Shown piece after piece: positions 24,001-30,000 of a stretch of DNA of 54,932 bases (its first letter is position 1; the number at the start of each line of letters is the position of its first letter). Location of the stretch: NCBI GenBank assembly GCA_044220955.1, contig JBGAQA010000040.1, positions 1 through 54,932 on the forward strand. Direction: 5' to 3'. Source of the DNA: Sandaracinaceae bacterium (GTDB lineage Bacteria > Myxococcota_A > Polyangia > Polyangiales > Sandaracinaceae). A program made the position numbers.

Positions 24001-27000
24001 AGAGGCCCGTGCACGTCGCGGCGCCACGCCTCGCGGCGCGGCCCCGAGTCGCGCACTCTGGTACCGTCGCGCGCATGGAGACTCGGCCCTTCGGCCCCAC
24101 GGGGCGCTCTCTCTCGGTGATCGGGCTGGGCGGCATGCCGATGTCGATCGAAGGAAGGCCCGACGAGGCGCAGAGCCTGCGGACGATCCACGCGGCGCTC
24201 GACGCCGGGATGACCTTGATCGACACGGCGAACGTCTACTGCCTCGACGACGCCGACCTCGGCCACAACGAGCGGCTGATCGCCAAGGGGCTCTCGTCCT
24301 GGTCCGGCGCGCGCGACTCGATCTTCGTCGCGACCAAGGGGGGCCTCGCGCGGCCCGGCGGGGCGTGGCGCTCTTCGGCGCGGCCCGAGGCGCTCCGCGC
24401 GGCCTGCGAGCAGAGCTCGAGGGCGCTCGGGACCGAGCGCATCTGGCTCTATCAGCTCCACGCGCCCGATCCGAGCGTGCCGCTCGAGGCGAGCGTCGAG
24501 GCGCTCGCGAGGCTCCGCGACGAGGGTAGGATCGAGCACGTCGGGCTCTCGAACGTGAGCGTGCAGGAGATCGTGCGCGCGAGCGCGATCGTCCCGATCG
24601 TGAGCGTGCAGAACCGCATGAACCCGCACGACAAGCGTTCGATCGCGAACGGCGTGCTCGCGCACTGCGAGTCGCACGGCATCGCGTTCCTGCCCTACAG
24701 CCCCGTCGGCGGCGGGCGGGGGCGCGCGAAGATCGCCGGCGACGCGACGCTCGGTCGCATCGCCGCCAAGCACGGCGCGACCCCGCCGGAGATCGCCATC
24801 GCCTTCTGCGCGCGTATCTCCACGGTCTGCTTCCCGATCCCCGGCGCGAGTCGGCCCGAGAGCGCCCTCTCGAGCGCGCGCGCGGCGGCGATCCGGCTCG
24901 ACGCGAGTGACCTCGCGGCGCTCGCGTGAGCGCGACGCCACCATGCCGACCGAGCGCAGCGACGAGGCGACGACCGAGCAGACGCCGAGGCTCGCCCCGG
25001 AGATGACGCCCGCCGAGGCGCCCACGCTCGTCGCGCCAGGCACGCCCGAGGGCGCGCGCGTCGGGGCGGCCGACGTCGCGATCCACGTGCCCGGGCGCTA
25101 CATCGGCGGCCGCGAGCTCGGGCGCGGCGGCATGGGCGTCGTGCACGCGTGGAGCGATCCCCAGATCGGCCGCGAGATCGCGGCGAAGGTGCTCCTCAAG
25201 GACGATGCGGTGTCGCGCCGGCGTTTCATGCACGAGGCGCGCACGCAGGGCTCCCTCGCGCACCCGGCGATCGTGCCCGTGTACGACCTCGCGATGCTCG
25301 AGGACGGGCGGCCCTTCTTCACCATGCAGCGCGTGAAGGGCCAGACGCTCGCGTCCATCTTCACGAGCGAGGGCGGGCGCTTCTCCACGCGCAAGCTGCT
25401 CGAGGCGCTGGCGCGCATGGCGCTCGCTGTCGAGTTCTCGCACGAGCGCGGCGTCGTGCACCGGGACCTCAAGCCCGCCAACCTGATGCTCGGCGACTTC
25501 GGCGAGGTGTACGTGCTCGACTGGGGCATCGCGCGGCGCATCGAGGAGCGCGCGTCGGTCGTGCCCGGCGTCAGCGGCACCGAGCCCTCGACCGACGAGG
25601 TGCTCGGCCTCACCGCCACCGGGACGCTGCTGGGAACACCGGGCTACATGTCGCCGGAGCAGGCGCGCGGGGCGATCGACGAGGTGGACGCGCGCTCGGA
25701 CGTGTACGCCCTCGGCTGCGTGCTCTTCGAGATCCTGGCCGGCGAGCCGCTCCACAAGGGCACGCGCGTCACCGAGCTGGTGATGAGCACGCTCGGCGGC
25801 ATGGTCGATCGCAGCCCCGCACGCCGTGCTCCCGGCAAGGACGTCCCTCCCGAGCTCGACGCGCTCTGCCTCTCCGCGACCGAGGCCGACAAGAGCGCAC
25901 GCCTCGAGTCGGTGCGCGCGCTGGCCGAGAGCCTCGAGCGCTACCTCGAGGGCGATCGCGACGTCGAGCTGCGCATGAAGGCGGCGCAGGAGCACGCGCG
26001 CAGCGCCGCCGGCCTGGCGAACGCGGCGCTGGGCAAGTCGCGGAGCAGCGCGCCGAAGACCGACGCCGAGATGCTCGACGCCCGGCAGAGGGCCCTCGCC
26101 GAGATCGGACGCGCGGTCGCGCTCGTGCCCGAGCACCCGGTCGCGCTGGCCGCGCTGGTCGCGCTGCTCACCGAGCCTCCCAAGCGGACCCCCGACGAGG
26201 TCCGCATCGAGCTCGAAGACCTGCGTCACTCCCACGTCAGGGTGGGCGGCCGCACCGGCGCTGCGGCGTATGGGGCCGCTGCCGCGCTGCTCGCGACGCT
26301 GCTCGCGGTGGATCGCGTCCCCTTCGGCGCCACGTCGATCGTCTCGGAGGTGCTGCTGATCGGCGCGGCGCTCACCAGCTTCGGCTTGTCACGCGTCGCG
26401 CGGCCCGCGCGCTATGCCTCTCTTTCGATGCTCGTGATCAGCACCCTCGCGCTCGCCTCGCTCACGACGCTCTTCGGTCCGTTCATCGCGACGCCGACCG
26501 CCCTCGCGGTGAACGCGCTCGTCTTCCTGGTGTCGAACGAGCGCGCGCTGCGCGGCCCCATCTTCGCGCTCGGCGCCGCGGGCGTCGTGCTGCCGATGGC
26601 GCTCGAGGCGAGCGGGATCGTCGCCCCGTCGTTCCGGTTCGAGGGCGGCAACATGGTCCTCTTGCCGCGCGCCCTGCCCTTCGAGCCCTCGTCGCTGATC
26701 GTGCTCGCGGTCGTCTTCGTCGCCACCGTCGTCCTGGGCGCCGCGACGCTCGGACCCTTCCGCGACGACCTCGATCGAGCGCTGCTCGAGAGCCGCGTGC
26801 TCGCGTGGCAGCTTCGCCAGTTCGTGCCGACCCGATCGCGCACTCCCAAGGACCCAGGATGAGCCAGCCCTCGATGCCCCCCTCCTCGTCCGGCGCCCTC
26901 GCGGCGCCGCAGCGGCGTCCGCGCGATCGGCCGGCGAACGTGAAGCTGGTGCTCGTGATGGTCGGGCTGCCCGCGCGGGGCAAGACGCACATCGCGCGGC

Positions 27001-30000
27001 GCGCGGCGCGCTACCTCACCTGGCTCGGCTACAAGACGCGCGTGTTCAACGTCGGGAACTACCGGCGCGAGCGCCTCGGCAGCCAGAAGGACCACTCGTT
27101 CTTCGATCACGAGAACGTCGACGCGAGGGCGGCGCGCCGCACGGTCGCCATGGAGTGCCTCGACGATCTCGTCACGTGGATGGGCGAGGGAGGCGAGATC
27201 GCGCTCTACGACGCGACGAACTCGCAGGTCGAGCGGCGCAGCGTGGTGGCGGAGCGCTGTCGATCGGCGGGATTCCAGGTCGTGTTCGTCGAGTCGGTGT
27301 GCGAGGACCCGAGCATCATCGAGAGCAACATCCGGCAGACCAAGCTCCACATGCCCGACTACGCCGGGATGGACCCGGACGCCGCCGTGCAGGACTTCCG
27401 CGAGCGCATCGCGCACTACGCGGCGGTGTACGAGCCGGTCGGCGAGAGCGAGGGCAGCTTCGTCCGCATCATCGACGTGGGCCGCAAGCTGGAGATCCAC
27501 CGCATCCAGGGCTACCTCGCCTCGCGCCTCGTCTACTTCTTGATGAACAACCACCCCATCCCTCGGCCCATCTACCTGACGAGGCACGGCGAGAGCCTGT
27601 TCAACGTCGAGGGACGGATCGGCGGCGACGCGGGGCTCGCGCCCAGGGGTGAGGCCTTCGCGTCGCGCCTGGCGCGCTGGTTCGAGACGGAGCGGCCGAC
27701 CCCGGACCTCGTGGTGTTCACGAGCACGCTCGTGCGGACCGTCGACACGGCGCGCTGGCTCGGCCGTCCGACGGTCGAGTGGCGGGCGCTGGACGAGATC
27801 TACGCGGGCGACTGCGACTCGATGACGTACGACGAGATCCGCGAGCAGTACCCCGGCGTCGTCGAGGCACGCTCGCACGACAAGCTGAGCTACCGGTATC
27901 CTCGGGGCGAGAGCTATCTCGATGATCACCGGCTCGAGCCGGTGATCATCGAGATCGAGCGCGAGCGCTCCCCGGTCCTCGTCATCGCGCACCAGGCGGT
28001 GCTGCGCGCGCTCTACGCGTACCTGATGGACAAGCCGCCGCGCGAGTGCCCGTTCCTTCCGATGCCGCTGCACACCGTCATCCAGCTCACGCCGACGACC
28101 TACGGCTGCGACGAGGCGCGCTTCGAGCTCGGCCCGGCCGCGGACACGCGCGACAGCAAGAGCCCACCCGCGCCGCCCGCGGCATGAGGCGGCGAGTCGT
28201 CGAGAGCGCGCTCCTCTCGCTCGCCTGGCTCGGGCCGCTCCTGGTCGCGCCCGGCGCGCTCTCGTCCGCGCGCGTCTGGGGGGGCGCGCTCGCGCCGGCG
28301 CTGCTGCTCGTCGCGGGCGTGTTCGTCGGCGCTCGGCGCGGCCCGCGACGCGGCGTCGTCCCGCTCTTCGCCACGGCTGGCGTGGCGCAGCTCTGGGCGT
28401 GGCTCGCGGGCGACGCCGCCGGCGCGGCCGCCATCTACACGCTCTCGCTGCTCGGCTGCTGGCTCCTCGTCTGTCCGCTCGCCCGCACGCTCGAGCCCGC
28501 CGACGCGCTGCAGTCACGCTTCCTCGTCACCCTCGTGGCCGATGCGACGGCGATCCTGGGGTCCGTCTCGCTCGCCGTGGTGTTCGACCTCCGGGTCGCG
28601 CTCGGCGGCGCGGTGGCGGTGGTGTTCGCGCTGGTGGGGGTGCGCTACCCGGTGGCTCGCGTCCGCGCGGGCATCACCGTGCTGGCGGGCGGCTTGCTCC
28701 ACGCGTGGCTGGGCCTGCCCGGGCTGATGGAGCTCGCCCGCGATCCCGCCTCGGCCGCGATGGCGCTCGACGAGCTCCTCCGGAGGTCGGCGGTGCTGGC
28801 GAGCGCGGCCGTGCTCGCCGCGATCGTGCTGAGCGCCGGCGACGAGCGAAGATGAGCACGATGAACGAGATCAGACACCGCACGACGAACCTCGCGTAAC
28901 GGAAGTTTCGCGGGTAAGCTGCTTGCGTGGGCGCAACCGACGAAACCCTCGACCTCTTCACGCGCAGCATGGAGCGATGCCTGCTCGCCCCGTCGTTCCT
29001 CGACCGCTTCTACGCGCGCTTTCTGCTCTCGAGCGACGTGGCCGCGCGCCGGTTCGAGAACGTGGATCTCAAGCGGCAGGCGGCGGTTCTCCGGGCGTCG
29101 CTCTATCACGTGATGCGCGCGGCGCGGGGCGCGAGCGACGGCATGCAGCACCTCGAGGAGATCGCGGCCAAGCACTCCAAGCGTGGGCTCGACATCCGCC
29201 CGGCCGAGTACAAGCACTGGCTCGAGTGCTTGATCGCCGTCGCGCGGGAGACGGACCCTACGTTCGACGCGCCGACCGAGGCGGCGTGGCGGCTCCACAT
29301 CGGCAACGCCATCGGCGTCATGCTCGCGCGATACGAGCAAGCCGGCTGACGGGCCCCGGCGGGCCCGATCGACAGCGTTAGCTAGCGCTGGATTTCGCTC
29401 GAGCGAGATCGCACCGGATCCTCGCCCGAGCGCTCAAGCCTCCGCGTCGAACGCCCGATGGTCCGTGGGAGGTGAGGCCATGGACCTGACGGGGCTTCGA
29501 GGTGCGCGCCCGGCCGCGGTGATGCTCGCGTGGCTGGCGGTCGCGGGGTGCGGCGCGGACGCCCCCGCCGCGCAGGGCCCGGTCCAGCAGGTCGACGCCG
29601 GCCACGCGGACGCCCCCGCTCCGGGCCTCGACGCAGGCCCCCTCGCGAGGAGGGACTGCGCGGGCGGATGCGTCGTGGCTGGCGAGTGCCTGGCCGACGG
29701 TGCGAGCCCTGCGGGGCAGCCGTGCGTGGTGTGCGACGCAGGCGCCGCCCCCGCCGCGCTCGTCCCCGCCGACGGCCGGCACTGCGACGACGGTGCGTTC
29801 TGCACGGTCGCCGACGCTTGCCGAGGCGGCGCGTGCGTCGGCCAGCCGCGGGACTGCTCGGACGAGCTCGCGTGCACGACGGGGGACGTCTGCGACGAGG
29901 CCCGAGACAGCTGTGCTCCTGGGACGTCGAGCTGCGCGGCCGAGCAGCTCTGCGGGGCGAGCGGCTGCGTCACGAGCTGCGCCGGCTGCGTGGTCGGCGG

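Follow-up and report, generated by a model that had tools for sequence, protein, structure and literature searches.

An intact PFK-2/FBPase-2 homologue of Polyangia myxobacteria, probably a fructose 2,6-bisphosphate enzyme, and a protein kinase gene inserted beside it in a single species

Genes and features of the locus

The window, the whole stretch of DNA analyzed here, comprises the 54,932 nucleotides of contig JBGAQA010000040.1 of a Sandaracinaceae bacterium (GCA_044220955.1). It contains a gene for a homologue of 6-phosphofructo-2-kinase/fructose-2,6-bisphosphatase (PFK-2/FBPase-2, hereafter PFKFB), with the following features at and around it.

24075-24929, forward strand: aldo/keto reductase gene (Pfam Aldo_ket_red, E 2.3e-60); start codon uncertain (candidates 24009-24141)
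24936-26904, forward strand: segment missing from three same-genus genomes by blastn; it holds the whole kinase gene and the first 15 PFKFB codons
24943-26862, forward strand: Ser/Thr protein kinase gene, 639 aa (translation without stops; Pkinase, E 5.3e-35); alternative GTG start at 24907
25108-25923, forward strand: kinase catalytic domain, residues 56-327 (Pfam PF00069; genome search match at the same span)
26254-26763, forward strand: C-terminal hydrophobic region of the kinase, residues about 438-607, with about 5-6 predicted membrane segments (Kyte-Doolittle scan)
26859-26862, forward strand: ATGA overlap of 4 nt, the PFKFB start lying on the kinase stop (...ccaggATGAgcc...)
26859-28187, forward strand: PFKFB gene, 442 aa (translation without stops, Pfam, structure match, GC3)
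26934-27560, forward strand: 6-phosphofructo-2-kinase half, residues 26-234, Walker A GLPARGKT at 36-43 (Pfam PF01591, 6PF2K, E 7.1e-75)
27570-28112, forward strand: fructose-2,6-bisphosphatase half, residues 238-418, with R242-H243-G244-E245, E313 and H378 (Pfam PF00300, His_Phos_1, E 8.3e-33)
27919-27928, forward strand: variant found locally in this assembly, with 3 substitutions and 3 nt fewer overall, YLD-DHRL vs. Y.DVI.RL in all relatives (sequence comparison)
28184-28855, forward strand: gene for a hydrophobic protein of 223 aa and no known family, its ATG overlapping the PFKFB stop by 4 nt (ATGA, 28184-28187)

As the survey's finding had stated, the kinase and PFKFB reading frames lie on the same strand, and the 4-nt overlap between them was confirmed in the sequence. 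A plausible ribosome site, AAGGA, lies 6 nt upstream of the PFKFB ATG. Contigs from three studies bridge the junction (X1, 25639-27486; X2, 26507-28400; X4, 26815-27888; X1 may be the source sample) and, thus, it is real and not an assembly artefact. Only 13 nt separate the reductase stop from the kinase gene. The kinase has all catalytic motifs (GRGGMG60, AAK82, HRD173, DWG193, and SPE237), and its C-terminal domain is common to paralogues with 40-42% identity over their full length (e.g., G000:C77). The 223-aa protein had no Pfam match; its gene follows PFKFB in all four same-genus loci (75, 71, 71, and 42% identity) but went undetected at the other loci searched.

The PFKFB protein

A 6PF2K domain at the N-terminus and a histidine-phosphatase domain at the C-terminus are joined in one chain, which is the architecture of PFK-2/FBPase-2. 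The best match among solved structures was human PFKFB3 (6ibx; E 6.8e-121, residues 25-419), and the protein is colinear with PDB entries 6IBX/2AXN, 5HTK, 1K6M, and 1BIF over residues 25-428 (E 1e-115 to 1e-121). The words GLPARGKT, RHGE, and HQAVLR are all present, which bears out the earlier description of a bifunctional enzyme with both motif sets. The kinase half has its nucleotide loop (G36-T43) and DATN motif (D118-N121). In the phosphatase half, the catalytic histidine of RHG, the catalytic glutamate and the second histidine are H243, E313, and H378, which the structure alignment pairs with His253, Glu322, and His387 of PFKFB3. The residue numbering in PMC6937325 fits this alignment, with the ATP loop Pro43-Thr48 equal to P38-T43 and Glu322-Ala325 equal to E313-A316.

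Residues were compared in a 16-sequence alignment that included five eukaryotes and in 87 distinct myxobacterial sequences. All 87 keep K42, R69, R70, D118, T120, N121, K162, R183, and Y187 as well as H243, E313, H378, and R293 of the phosphatase half; among the active-site residues checked, three positions vary, conservatively only, and the rest are kept. Arginines and a tyrosine that presumably belong to the sugar-phosphate site are among the columns unchanged in all bacterial and eukaryotic sequences. Judged by its sequence, the window protein is a PFK-2/FBPase-2 homologue in which both domains are intact and both active sites conserved, which makes synthesis and breakdown of fructose 2,6-bisphosphate in this bacterium plausible. 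The N-terminal P-loop half would form fructose 2,6-bisphosphate from fructose 6-phosphate and ATP, and the C-terminal half would hydrolyze it back via a phospho-histidine on H243.

The core is flanked by about 25 residues on the N-terminal side and about 20 on the C-terminal side, both stretches being poorly conserved among relatives, and long terminal extensions are absent. In animal PFKFB, long N- or C-terminal extensions carry the PKA and AMPK sites. Such a regulatory extension is a trait of the animal isoforms and not of the whole PFK-2/FBPase-2 family.

The copy in the window has a local peculiarity. The YLD-DHRL variant occurs in one of the 87 distinct sequences, and P0003, a 99% identical sequence from other samples, reads RDVIR at the site. 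Among the contigs from read runs, X2 and X4 carry +TC and +G there, and X1 has the form of the window, but at a contig boundary. The one-residue deletion falls where the helix corresponding to PFKFB3 alpha17 (Tyr362-Arg378) begins; according to PMC6937325, that helix controls the bisphosphatase site. Consequently, the window allele could have an altered phosphatase activity, or else the variant is an assembly error.

Distribution and ancestry of PFKFB

PFKFB was detected in 30 of 32 Sandaracinaceae genomes (29 of 31 without the unpublished genome G029) and in all 22 of high quality; the survey had counted 27 of 31, and the wide presence that it reported stands with somewhat different figures. 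Of the 151 genomes sampled across the phylum, 35 carry PFKFB, and presence is all-or-none by family (f18, 12/12; f31, 10/10; f3, 0/8). There were 325 matching stretches among species genomes. Eighteen Sorangium genomes have the gene at one shared chromosomal position, at 46-55 kb.

The survey had called the enzyme animal-type, pointing out that all five of its Swiss-Prot hits were vertebrate. The label is a misnomer, and that pattern reflects the content of Swiss-Prot: identity to eukaryotic proteins is 44-51% for animal, amoebozoan, fungal, and algal sequences alike. The tree places the vertebrate-type sequence with fungi and Pygsuia, apart from the myxobacterial rows, which cluster together and not within animals, fungi or amoebae; the AU test did not reject a single clade of all 19 myxobacterial rows (p 0.22). 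A gene recently acquired from an animal or another eukaryote, or eukaryotic DNA contaminating the assembly, would account for the vertebrate proteins being the best named matches in curated databases. This is hardly credible given the place of the myxobacterial rows in the tree, the presence of the gene in nearly all genomes of the family and in the complete genomes of Sandaracinus, Sorangium, and Minicystis, and a GC3 of 0.95, which is host-like, as in the neighboring genes (0.944 in the kinase gene). PFKFB appears instead to be old and vertically inherited in Sandaracinaceae and other Polyangia, with no recent import.

Insertion of the kinase gene

The aldo/keto reductase is the ancestral upstream neighbor of PFKFB in this genus; in the three same-genus genomes (L009, L021, and L027) its protein is 78-82% identical and its gene lies directly before PFKFB. 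In blastn comparisons, alignments to these genomes end at 24930-24935 and resume at 26905-26910, with corresponding gaps of 558, 99, and 147 bp on the side of the relatives. The kinase insertion beside PFKFB is thus recent and confined to this species. The inserted gene replaced PFKFB's own 5' region, giving a tight string of four genes (reductase, kinase, PFKFB, and membrane protein). Since the insertion removed the upstream region of PFKFB, the kinase and PFKFB are probably co-transcribed.

In the survey's reading, this bacterium makes and degrades fructose 2,6-bisphosphate, and the coupled kinase sets the balance of the two activities by phosphorylation, as PKA and AMPK do in animals. The intact enzyme on which that reading was built has held up, but the kinase as its regulatory partner has not. 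A kinase-substrate link in this species is possible in view of the tight same-strand overlap with its plausible ribosome site, the loss of PFKFB's upstream region with probable co-transcription, and a precedent in Myxococcus xanthus, where pkn4 and pfk share an operon and the Pkn4 kinase phosphorylates the pfk product (Nariya and Inouye, 2002, as cited in PMC2887360). The complete set of catalytic motifs in the kinase and the kinase genes found within 3 kb of PFKFB at 27 of 80 loci also favor it. Against this, the linkage is not conserved in related genomes: the segment is absent from the three same-genus genomes, no kinase lies directly upstream of PFKFB at any of 28 family loci, and the sole orthologue (62% identity) is on another contig, before a methyltransferase gene. 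Eighteen of the 27 loci are from Sorangium and count as one event; there the kinase lies on the opposite strand, beyond a Cu-oxidase_4 gene, and its orthologues (60-67% identity) in G017, G018, G027, and G000 lie away from PFKFB. In Sorangium and other Sandaracinaceae, the kinases close to PFKFB are distinct, non-orthologous genes. This genome has at least 150 Pkinase genes in 7.5 Mb, and PMC2887360 cautions that about every thirtieth Sorangium cellulosum gene encodes such a kinase. PFKFB also lacks animal-like regulatory tails. Phosphorylation of PFKFB by the kinase has no support from conservation; we regard such control as unlikely and, if it exists, as confined to this species.

Possible receivers of fructose 2,6-bisphosphate

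The genome, 88% complete, contains three PFK-family genes and one class 1 FBPase, as previously noted; GlpX was not found in it. The PFKs (360, 444, and 399 aa) have GGNG, GGDG, and GGNG motifs, respectively. The PPi-PFK signature GGDD, taken from PMC12203962, is absent from all three. None of them has the duplicated effector half of the eukaryotic enzymes. A class 1 FBPase was detected in 32 of 35 PFKFB-bearing sampled genomes compared to 52 of 116 without PFKFB, relatives among them not being independent; the three PFKFB-bearing genomes without a match all belong to one genus. Bacterial class 1 FBPase is presumably inhibited by fructose 2,6-bisphosphate. The likeliest receiver of the signal would be the single class 1 fructose-1,6-bisphosphatase, inhibited at its active site by the analogue.

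Discussion

We think it likely that the window protein is a fructose 2,6-bisphosphate enzyme whose halves make and hydrolyze this compound, encoded by an old, vertically inherited gene, with the class 1 FBPase as the likely receiver and the kinase gene inserted in this species only. PFKFB might instead serve no fructose 2,6-bisphosphate signaling, one or both halves acting on another sugar phosphate, or its product being a by-product with no receiver. The three PFKs show no evident canonical effector site for fructose 2,6-bisphosphate, an equivalog model for the protein is lacking in NCBIfam (the best matches, to cobC and PspA phosphatase models, are far under the cut-offs), and many sources label these proteins "broad specificity phosphatase PhoE/predicted kinase." NCBI records for Sandaracinus and Sorangium already carry the PFK-2/FBPase-2 name. 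Identity of about 50% to the eukaryotic enzymes over both halves, invariant columns that include the presumed sugar-phosphate-site residues and near-universal conservation in the families holding PFKFB make a non-signaling role quite unlikely.

More speculatively, and in our view doubtfully, Polyangia myxobacteria may have used true fructose 2,6-bisphosphate signaling, received by the class 1 FBPase, from an early point in the history of their class onward, and this sludge species may also have rewired it into an operon under a membrane Ser/Thr kinase. As the bacterial clade joins the eukaryotic tree in a region whose branching is unresolved, outside any one supergroup, the family could stem from a very old eukaryote-to-myxobacterium transfer or be the bacterial source of the eukaryotic enzyme. 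Such a deep, unresolved placement matters for the debate on what myxobacteria contributed to early eukaryotes.

In current teaching, fructose 2,6-bisphosphate counts as an invention of eukaryotes. Myxobacteria have a large PFKFB family that is conserved and intact, and its presence in the culturable Sandaracinus amylolyticus and Sorangium cellulosum makes bacterial use of the compound directly testable. The kinase coupling is a one-species rearrangement; as a recent insertion, it gives little support for animal-style control and should not be read as a sign of a regulatory module of the animal kind.

No paper on PFK-2/FBPase-2 of any myxobacterium was found in the literature library searched. 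The closest known systems are as follows. The eukaryotic PFK-2/FBPase-2 (human PFKFB1-4) has the same domain order, with the Walker A loop, RHG histidine, catalytic glutamate, and second histidine in place. The window protein differs in its bacterial host, in having Arg293 where PFKFB3 has a serine, and in lacking the N-terminal autoregulatory region and the long C-terminal tail, and its activity is putative. The proteins annotated as 6-phosphofructo-2-kinase/fructose-2,6-bisphosphatase in Sandaracinus amylolyticus and Sorangium belong to the same family (58-68% identical to the window protein) and have their name by annotation alone. Like pkn4-pfk, the locus pairs a eukaryote-like Ser/Thr kinase gene, in what is probably one operon, with a myxobacterial gene acting at the fructose-6-phosphate node; however, pkn4-pfk is syntenic across seven myxobacteria (PMC2887360), whereas the kinase-PFKFB pair occurs in one species only. 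Neither the three PFK genes of this genome nor its FBPase gene has a kinase match within 1.5 kb. A review-style statement in PMC9721465 allows a single bacterial exception to the eukaryote-only rule, the PFK-2/FBPase-2 homologue of Desulfovibrio desulfuricans (Rider et al., 2004, cited therein); compared with that homologue, the myxobacterial family is far larger.

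The PFKFB gene and its neighbors

The survey's finding was of a gene for a bifunctional PFK-2/FBPase-2 enzyme (PFKFB) overlapped by a Ser/Thr kinase gene, and this arrangement was confirmed. Both open reading frames translated cleanly, their Pfam domains were recovered, the PFKFB product matched solved PFKFB structures and the two genes shared an ATGA. The features of this region are as follows.

end at 24929, + strand, aldo/keto reductase gene, 13 nt upstream of the kinase gene
24943-26862, + strand, Ser/Thr kinase gene (639 aa) with a Pkinase domain at residues 56-327 (Pfam) and its TGA stop within the ATGA at 26859-26862
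26859-28187, + strand, PFKFB gene (442 aa) with 6PF2K at residues 26-234 (Pfam E 7.1e-75) and His_Phos_1 at residues 238-418 (Pfam E 8.3e-33)
28184-28855, + strand, gene for a 223-aa hydrophobic protein, its ATG overlapping the PFKFB stop as ATGA
34183-35643, + strand, further Ser/Thr kinase gene
49660-50412, + strand, further Ser/Thr kinase gene

The ATG of the first ATGA starts the PFKFB reading frame and is preceded by AAGGA 6 nt upstream. Reductase, kinase, PFKFB and membrane protein genes follow one another with spacings of +13, -4 and -4 nt. The G+C content of the window is 70-77%, and PFKFB and the kinase gene had third-position G+C values of 0.95 and 0.944, respectively, in line with surrounding genes. 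A consensus scan of 23800-29500 returned no promoter and no terminator sites, a result that says little at 73% G+C. The 223-aa protein had no match to any Pfam family. Each of the four same-genus loci has its reading frame downstream of PFKFB (at 75, 71, 71, and 42% identity), and it was absent from the remaining PFKFB loci searched; the linkage of PFKFB to this gene is better conserved than that of the kinase gene to PFKFB. Just past the gene string, a 140-aa open reading frame (28927-29349, + strand) gave a weak Globin match (E 1.5e-6). A putative metal-binding motif of the MopE type (PF11617) was detected in two large open reading frames on the - strand, at 16014-20339 and, below the Pfam cut-off, at 20986-22866.

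The kinase-PFKFB arrangement exists in nature. When contigs of public sequencing runs were aligned to 24000-28400, the kinase/PFKFB junction was spanned in three bioreactor and activated-sludge metagenomes from three studies, X1 (25639-27486), X2 (26507-28400) and X4 (26815-27888), and the reductase/kinase junction was spanned in X1 and X4. X1 may be the source sample of the window; X2 and X4 are independent of X1. An RNA run (X20), whose library may contain DNA, matched the window in two pieces, one exact over 187 nt (26869-27055) and one of 161 nt with 95% identity (26329-26489), neither of which spans the kinase/PFKFB junction.

Active sites of PFKFB

The PFKFB protein aligned over nearly its full length with the solved structures of human PFKFB3 and PFKFB2 and of the rat testis and liver enzymes (E 1e-115 to 7e-121), at about 50% identity. 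No NCBIfam model named the protein, and only partial phosphatase matches below their cut-offs were obtained. An alignment of the window protein with ten bacterial and five labeled eukaryotic homologs had invariant columns at GLPARGK, YRR, DATN, RHG, the Glu of DEI, YRY, GESY, and HQA. Conservation among bacteria was evaluated with the PFKFB translations of 108 fetched loci and the window, which comprised 87 distinct sequences. Residues K42, R69, R70, D118, T120, N121, K162, R183, Y187, R242, H243, N249, R293, E313, R338, K342, R346, E351, Y353, H378, and R383 were identical in all 87. Variation was seen at T43 (T or S), E245 (E in 67, Q in 20) and Q379 (Q in 80, R in 7).

H243 and H378 align with PFKFB3 residues 253 and 387, which we take to be the catalytic histidines. 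R293 occupies a position at which PFKFB3 carries a Ser that accounts for the weak phosphatase of PFKFB3; because of this replacement, the bacterial enzyme resembles the active-phosphatase isoforms. Both halves of PFKFB look competent, and we infer activity from these sequence comparisons. In the pairwise alignment with PFKFB3, P38-T43 corresponds to the ATP loop Pro43-Thr48 and E313-A316 to the loop Glu322-Ala325; PMC6937325 names both loops. A literature search for the catalytic residues in rat-liver numbering returned no paper.

One site in the phosphatase half departs from the family. The window protein reads GESYLD-DHRLEPV where the other 86 distinct sequences read GESY.DVI.RLEP. or a near variant, the result of a net 3-nt loss and substitutions at 27919-27928 in this assembly; the form was found in only one of the 87 distinct sequences. 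The site maps to the first turn of the helix equivalent to alpha17 of PFKFB3, beside the phosphatase site, and alpha17 is, according to PMC6937325, the element that disturbs the bisphosphatase site. Two explanations fit the variant: an allele of this strain whose phosphatase is altered, or an error of local assembly. X1 has the window form, located precisely at the boundary between X1 contigs. The X2 and X4 contigs have two insertions (+TC and +G) and three substitutions that give the canonical form, and the canonical RDVIR is also present in P0003, a protein from other samples with 99% identity.

Distribution and ancestry

The genome of origin (7.5 Mb, 301 contigs, 88% complete) contains one PFKFB copy. 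Within the family, PFKFB was detected in 30 of 32 genomes, among them the unpublished G029, and in all 22 high-quality ones. An even sample of the phylum had 35 of 151 genomes above the Pfam cut-off, and families were nearly all-or-none (12/12, 10/10, and 0/8). A scan of one genome per species yielded 325 stretches encoding PFKFB relatives. Nearly all of the best 80 were labeled myxobacteria or "Deltaproteobacteria" and included Sandaracinaceae, 18 Sorangium, Polyangium, Chondromyces, Minicystis, and one Nannocystis MAG; one locus (L119) was labeled Alphaproteobacteria. All 18 Sorangium genomes share one chromosomal position for PFKFB, at 46-55 kb. PFKFB is old and vertically inherited in these myxobacteria.

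The survey's "animal-type" label did not hold: it mirrors only the content of Swiss-Prot, because the window protein is 44-51% identical to all five aligned eukaryotes. Among 1.84 billion cluster representatives, 1197 matched at E <= 1e-30, and the best matches outside the protein's own cluster had about 53% identity. Labeled matches included amoebozoans (Acytostelium, Flabellula, and Dermamoeba), fungi (Podila and Sodiomyces), Chlorokybus, Rhodelphis, Phytophthora, Cantina, Diphylleia, Pygsuia, Andalucia, and one vertebrate PFKFB3-like protein. The top-scoring representative, P0122 (E 3e-180, 1069 aa, three matched stretches), came from a marine eukaryote transcriptome set; it resembles a fusion or tandem form, and its long branch lies apart from the myxobacterial rows.

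Phylogenies were built from 145 rows with FastTree, after removal of the 22 of 167 rows that aligned, at best, to fewer than 340 residues of the query, and from 54 rows (all labeled rows and 20 hand-picked unlabeled ones) with a careful IQ-TREE run under LG+C20. The backbone was not resolved by FastTree (145 rows), by quick IQ-TREE or by careful IQ-TREE (54 rows). Supported groups in the 54-row tree were Amoebozoa (95/87) and fungi, animals and Pygsuia together (95/80). The main myxobacterial group contained 16 rows (83/75), and a small "Myxococcaceae MAG" group was placed without resolution. Constraining all 19 myxobacterial rows to one clade lowered the log-likelihood by 0.99 units, and the AU test (p 0.22) did not reject a single origin in the phylum. 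A second bacterial cluster from marine metagenomes (P0256 and P0210; about 408 aa, 28 members, contigs up to 64 kb, one labeled Methylobacterium sp.) lay apart from the myxobacteria, beside an unlabeled row (98/92), and the starred branches split the bacteria into at least two groups. This implies more than one transfer of the enzyme into or out of bacteria. The 54-row tree did not place the myxobacterial clade within any one eukaryotic supergroup, and the direction and date of transfer could not be read from it.

Sandaracinus and Sorangium proteins are already named 6-phosphofructo-2-kinase/fructose-2,6-bisphosphatase in NCBI records, and a literature search on the enzyme names with prokaryotes, Sorangium and myxobacterial taxa returned no paper on the myxobacterial enzyme. 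PMC9721465, citing Rider et al. 2004, lists a Desulfovibrio desulfuricans homolog as an exception among prokaryotes, Fru-2,6-P2 metabolism being otherwise eukaryotic. Bacterial PFK-2/FBPase-2 of this kind forms a conserved and intact family that is publicly annotated yet unstudied. It occurs in culturable organisms, and the enzyme part of the survey's finding stands.

Candidate receivers of fructose 2,6-bisphosphate

The genome contains three PFK-family genes, whose products are a PfkA-like protein of 360 aa, a PRK06830-type protein of 444 aa and a divergent protein of 399 aa. According to PMC12203962, the Fru-2,6-P2 site of eukaryotic PFKs derives from a duplicated C-terminal half, GGDD marks PPi-PFKs, and the bacterial PPi-PFKs characterized so far are non-allosteric. 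The three PFKs detected here are single-length, with motifs GGNG, GGDG, and GGNG. One class 1 FBPase was detected; no GlpX-type FBPase was found, which in an 88% complete genome is no proof of absence. Fru-2,6-P2 occupies the active site of class 1 FBPases, the Escherichia coli enzyme included, and the class 1 FBPase is the likeliest predicted receiver. Class 1 FBPase was present in 32 of the 35 PFKFB-bearing genomes of the phylum sample compared to 52 of the 116 without PFKFB, related genomes not being independent, and the three PFKFB-bearing genomes that lack it all belong to one genus. This co-occurrence fits a class 1 FBPase as the receiver.

The kinase gene upstream of PFKFB

The window kinase has its glycine loop, Lys, HRD, DWG, and SPE motifs and about 5-6 hydrophobic segments between residues 438 and 607, and is probably an active, membrane-bound Ser/Thr kinase. 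Such genes are frequent: of 218 Pkinase candidates in the genome 150 were scored, so that at least 150 matches exceed the cut-off. Three lie in the window, where the two further kinase genes illustrate the density within 55 kb.

Synteny was compared over PFKFB and about 5 kb on either side (or to contig ends) in 28 other family genomes. None of these loci had a kinase gene directly upstream of PFKFB, and none matched the C-terminal domain of the window kinase. DNA of three same-genus loci (L009, L021, and L027) was colinear with the window across the reductase gene as far as 24930-24935 and then from 26905-26910 onward, with 558, 99, and 147 bp, respectively, in between; their PFKFB genes have their own GTG start and upstream region. 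Because this colinearity skips it, 24936-26904 is an insertion relative to these loci, and the segment brings the kinase gene and a new PFKFB N-terminus. The sole ortholog of the window kinase (62% protein and 74% DNA identity) was detected in a fourth same-genus genome, G020. Its downstream neighbor is not PFKFB but a gene for a class I methyltransferase (locus L031, contig C64, 3440-3853), and it lies on a different contig from the PFKFB of that genome, upstream of which five candidate open reading frames had no Pfam match. In the remaining three PFKFB-carrying genomes of the genus, the only kinase relative is 41-42% identical and matches a paralog on contig C77 of the window's own genome.

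Kinase genes also lie near PFKFB in other lineages. In six Sandaracinaceae loci a small kinase gene terminates about 2 kb upstream of PFKFB with an opposite-strand gene between, and 27 of the best 80 of the 325 species loci, 18 of them Sorangium, had a kinase-domain match within 3-kb flanks. At the Sorangium cellulosum So ce56 locus (L068, 857-4233), a Cu-oxidase_4 gene (PF02578, 2065-2961) lies upstream of PFKFB (2971-4233) on the same strand, and farther out is a divergent kinase gene of 401 aa on the opposite strand. Four Sandaracinaceae genomes, one of them the window's own (contig C266), have orthologs of this kinase (60-67% identity), none near PFKFB, and the kinases that do lie close to PFKFB in those four genomes are only 38-40% identical to it. 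Because the kinases differ in identity and their orthologs lie elsewhere, the juxtapositions are independent and involve different kinases.

About every thirtieth gene of S. cellulosum encodes such a kinase, a warning given in PMC2887360. We estimate that, at such a frequency, about one locus in ten would have a kinase among its four closest genes. The survey had proposed that the coupled kinase sets the balance of the two PFKFB activities; since the juxtapositions are independent and kinases frequent, the comparative evidence gives no support to a dedicated PFKFB kinase. The kinase part of the survey's finding is a gene insertion in a single species. This putative new operon may nonetheless have acquired kinase control of PFKFB, and PMC2887360 reports the pkn4-pfk operon of Myxococcus xanthus to be a real kinase-substrate pair.
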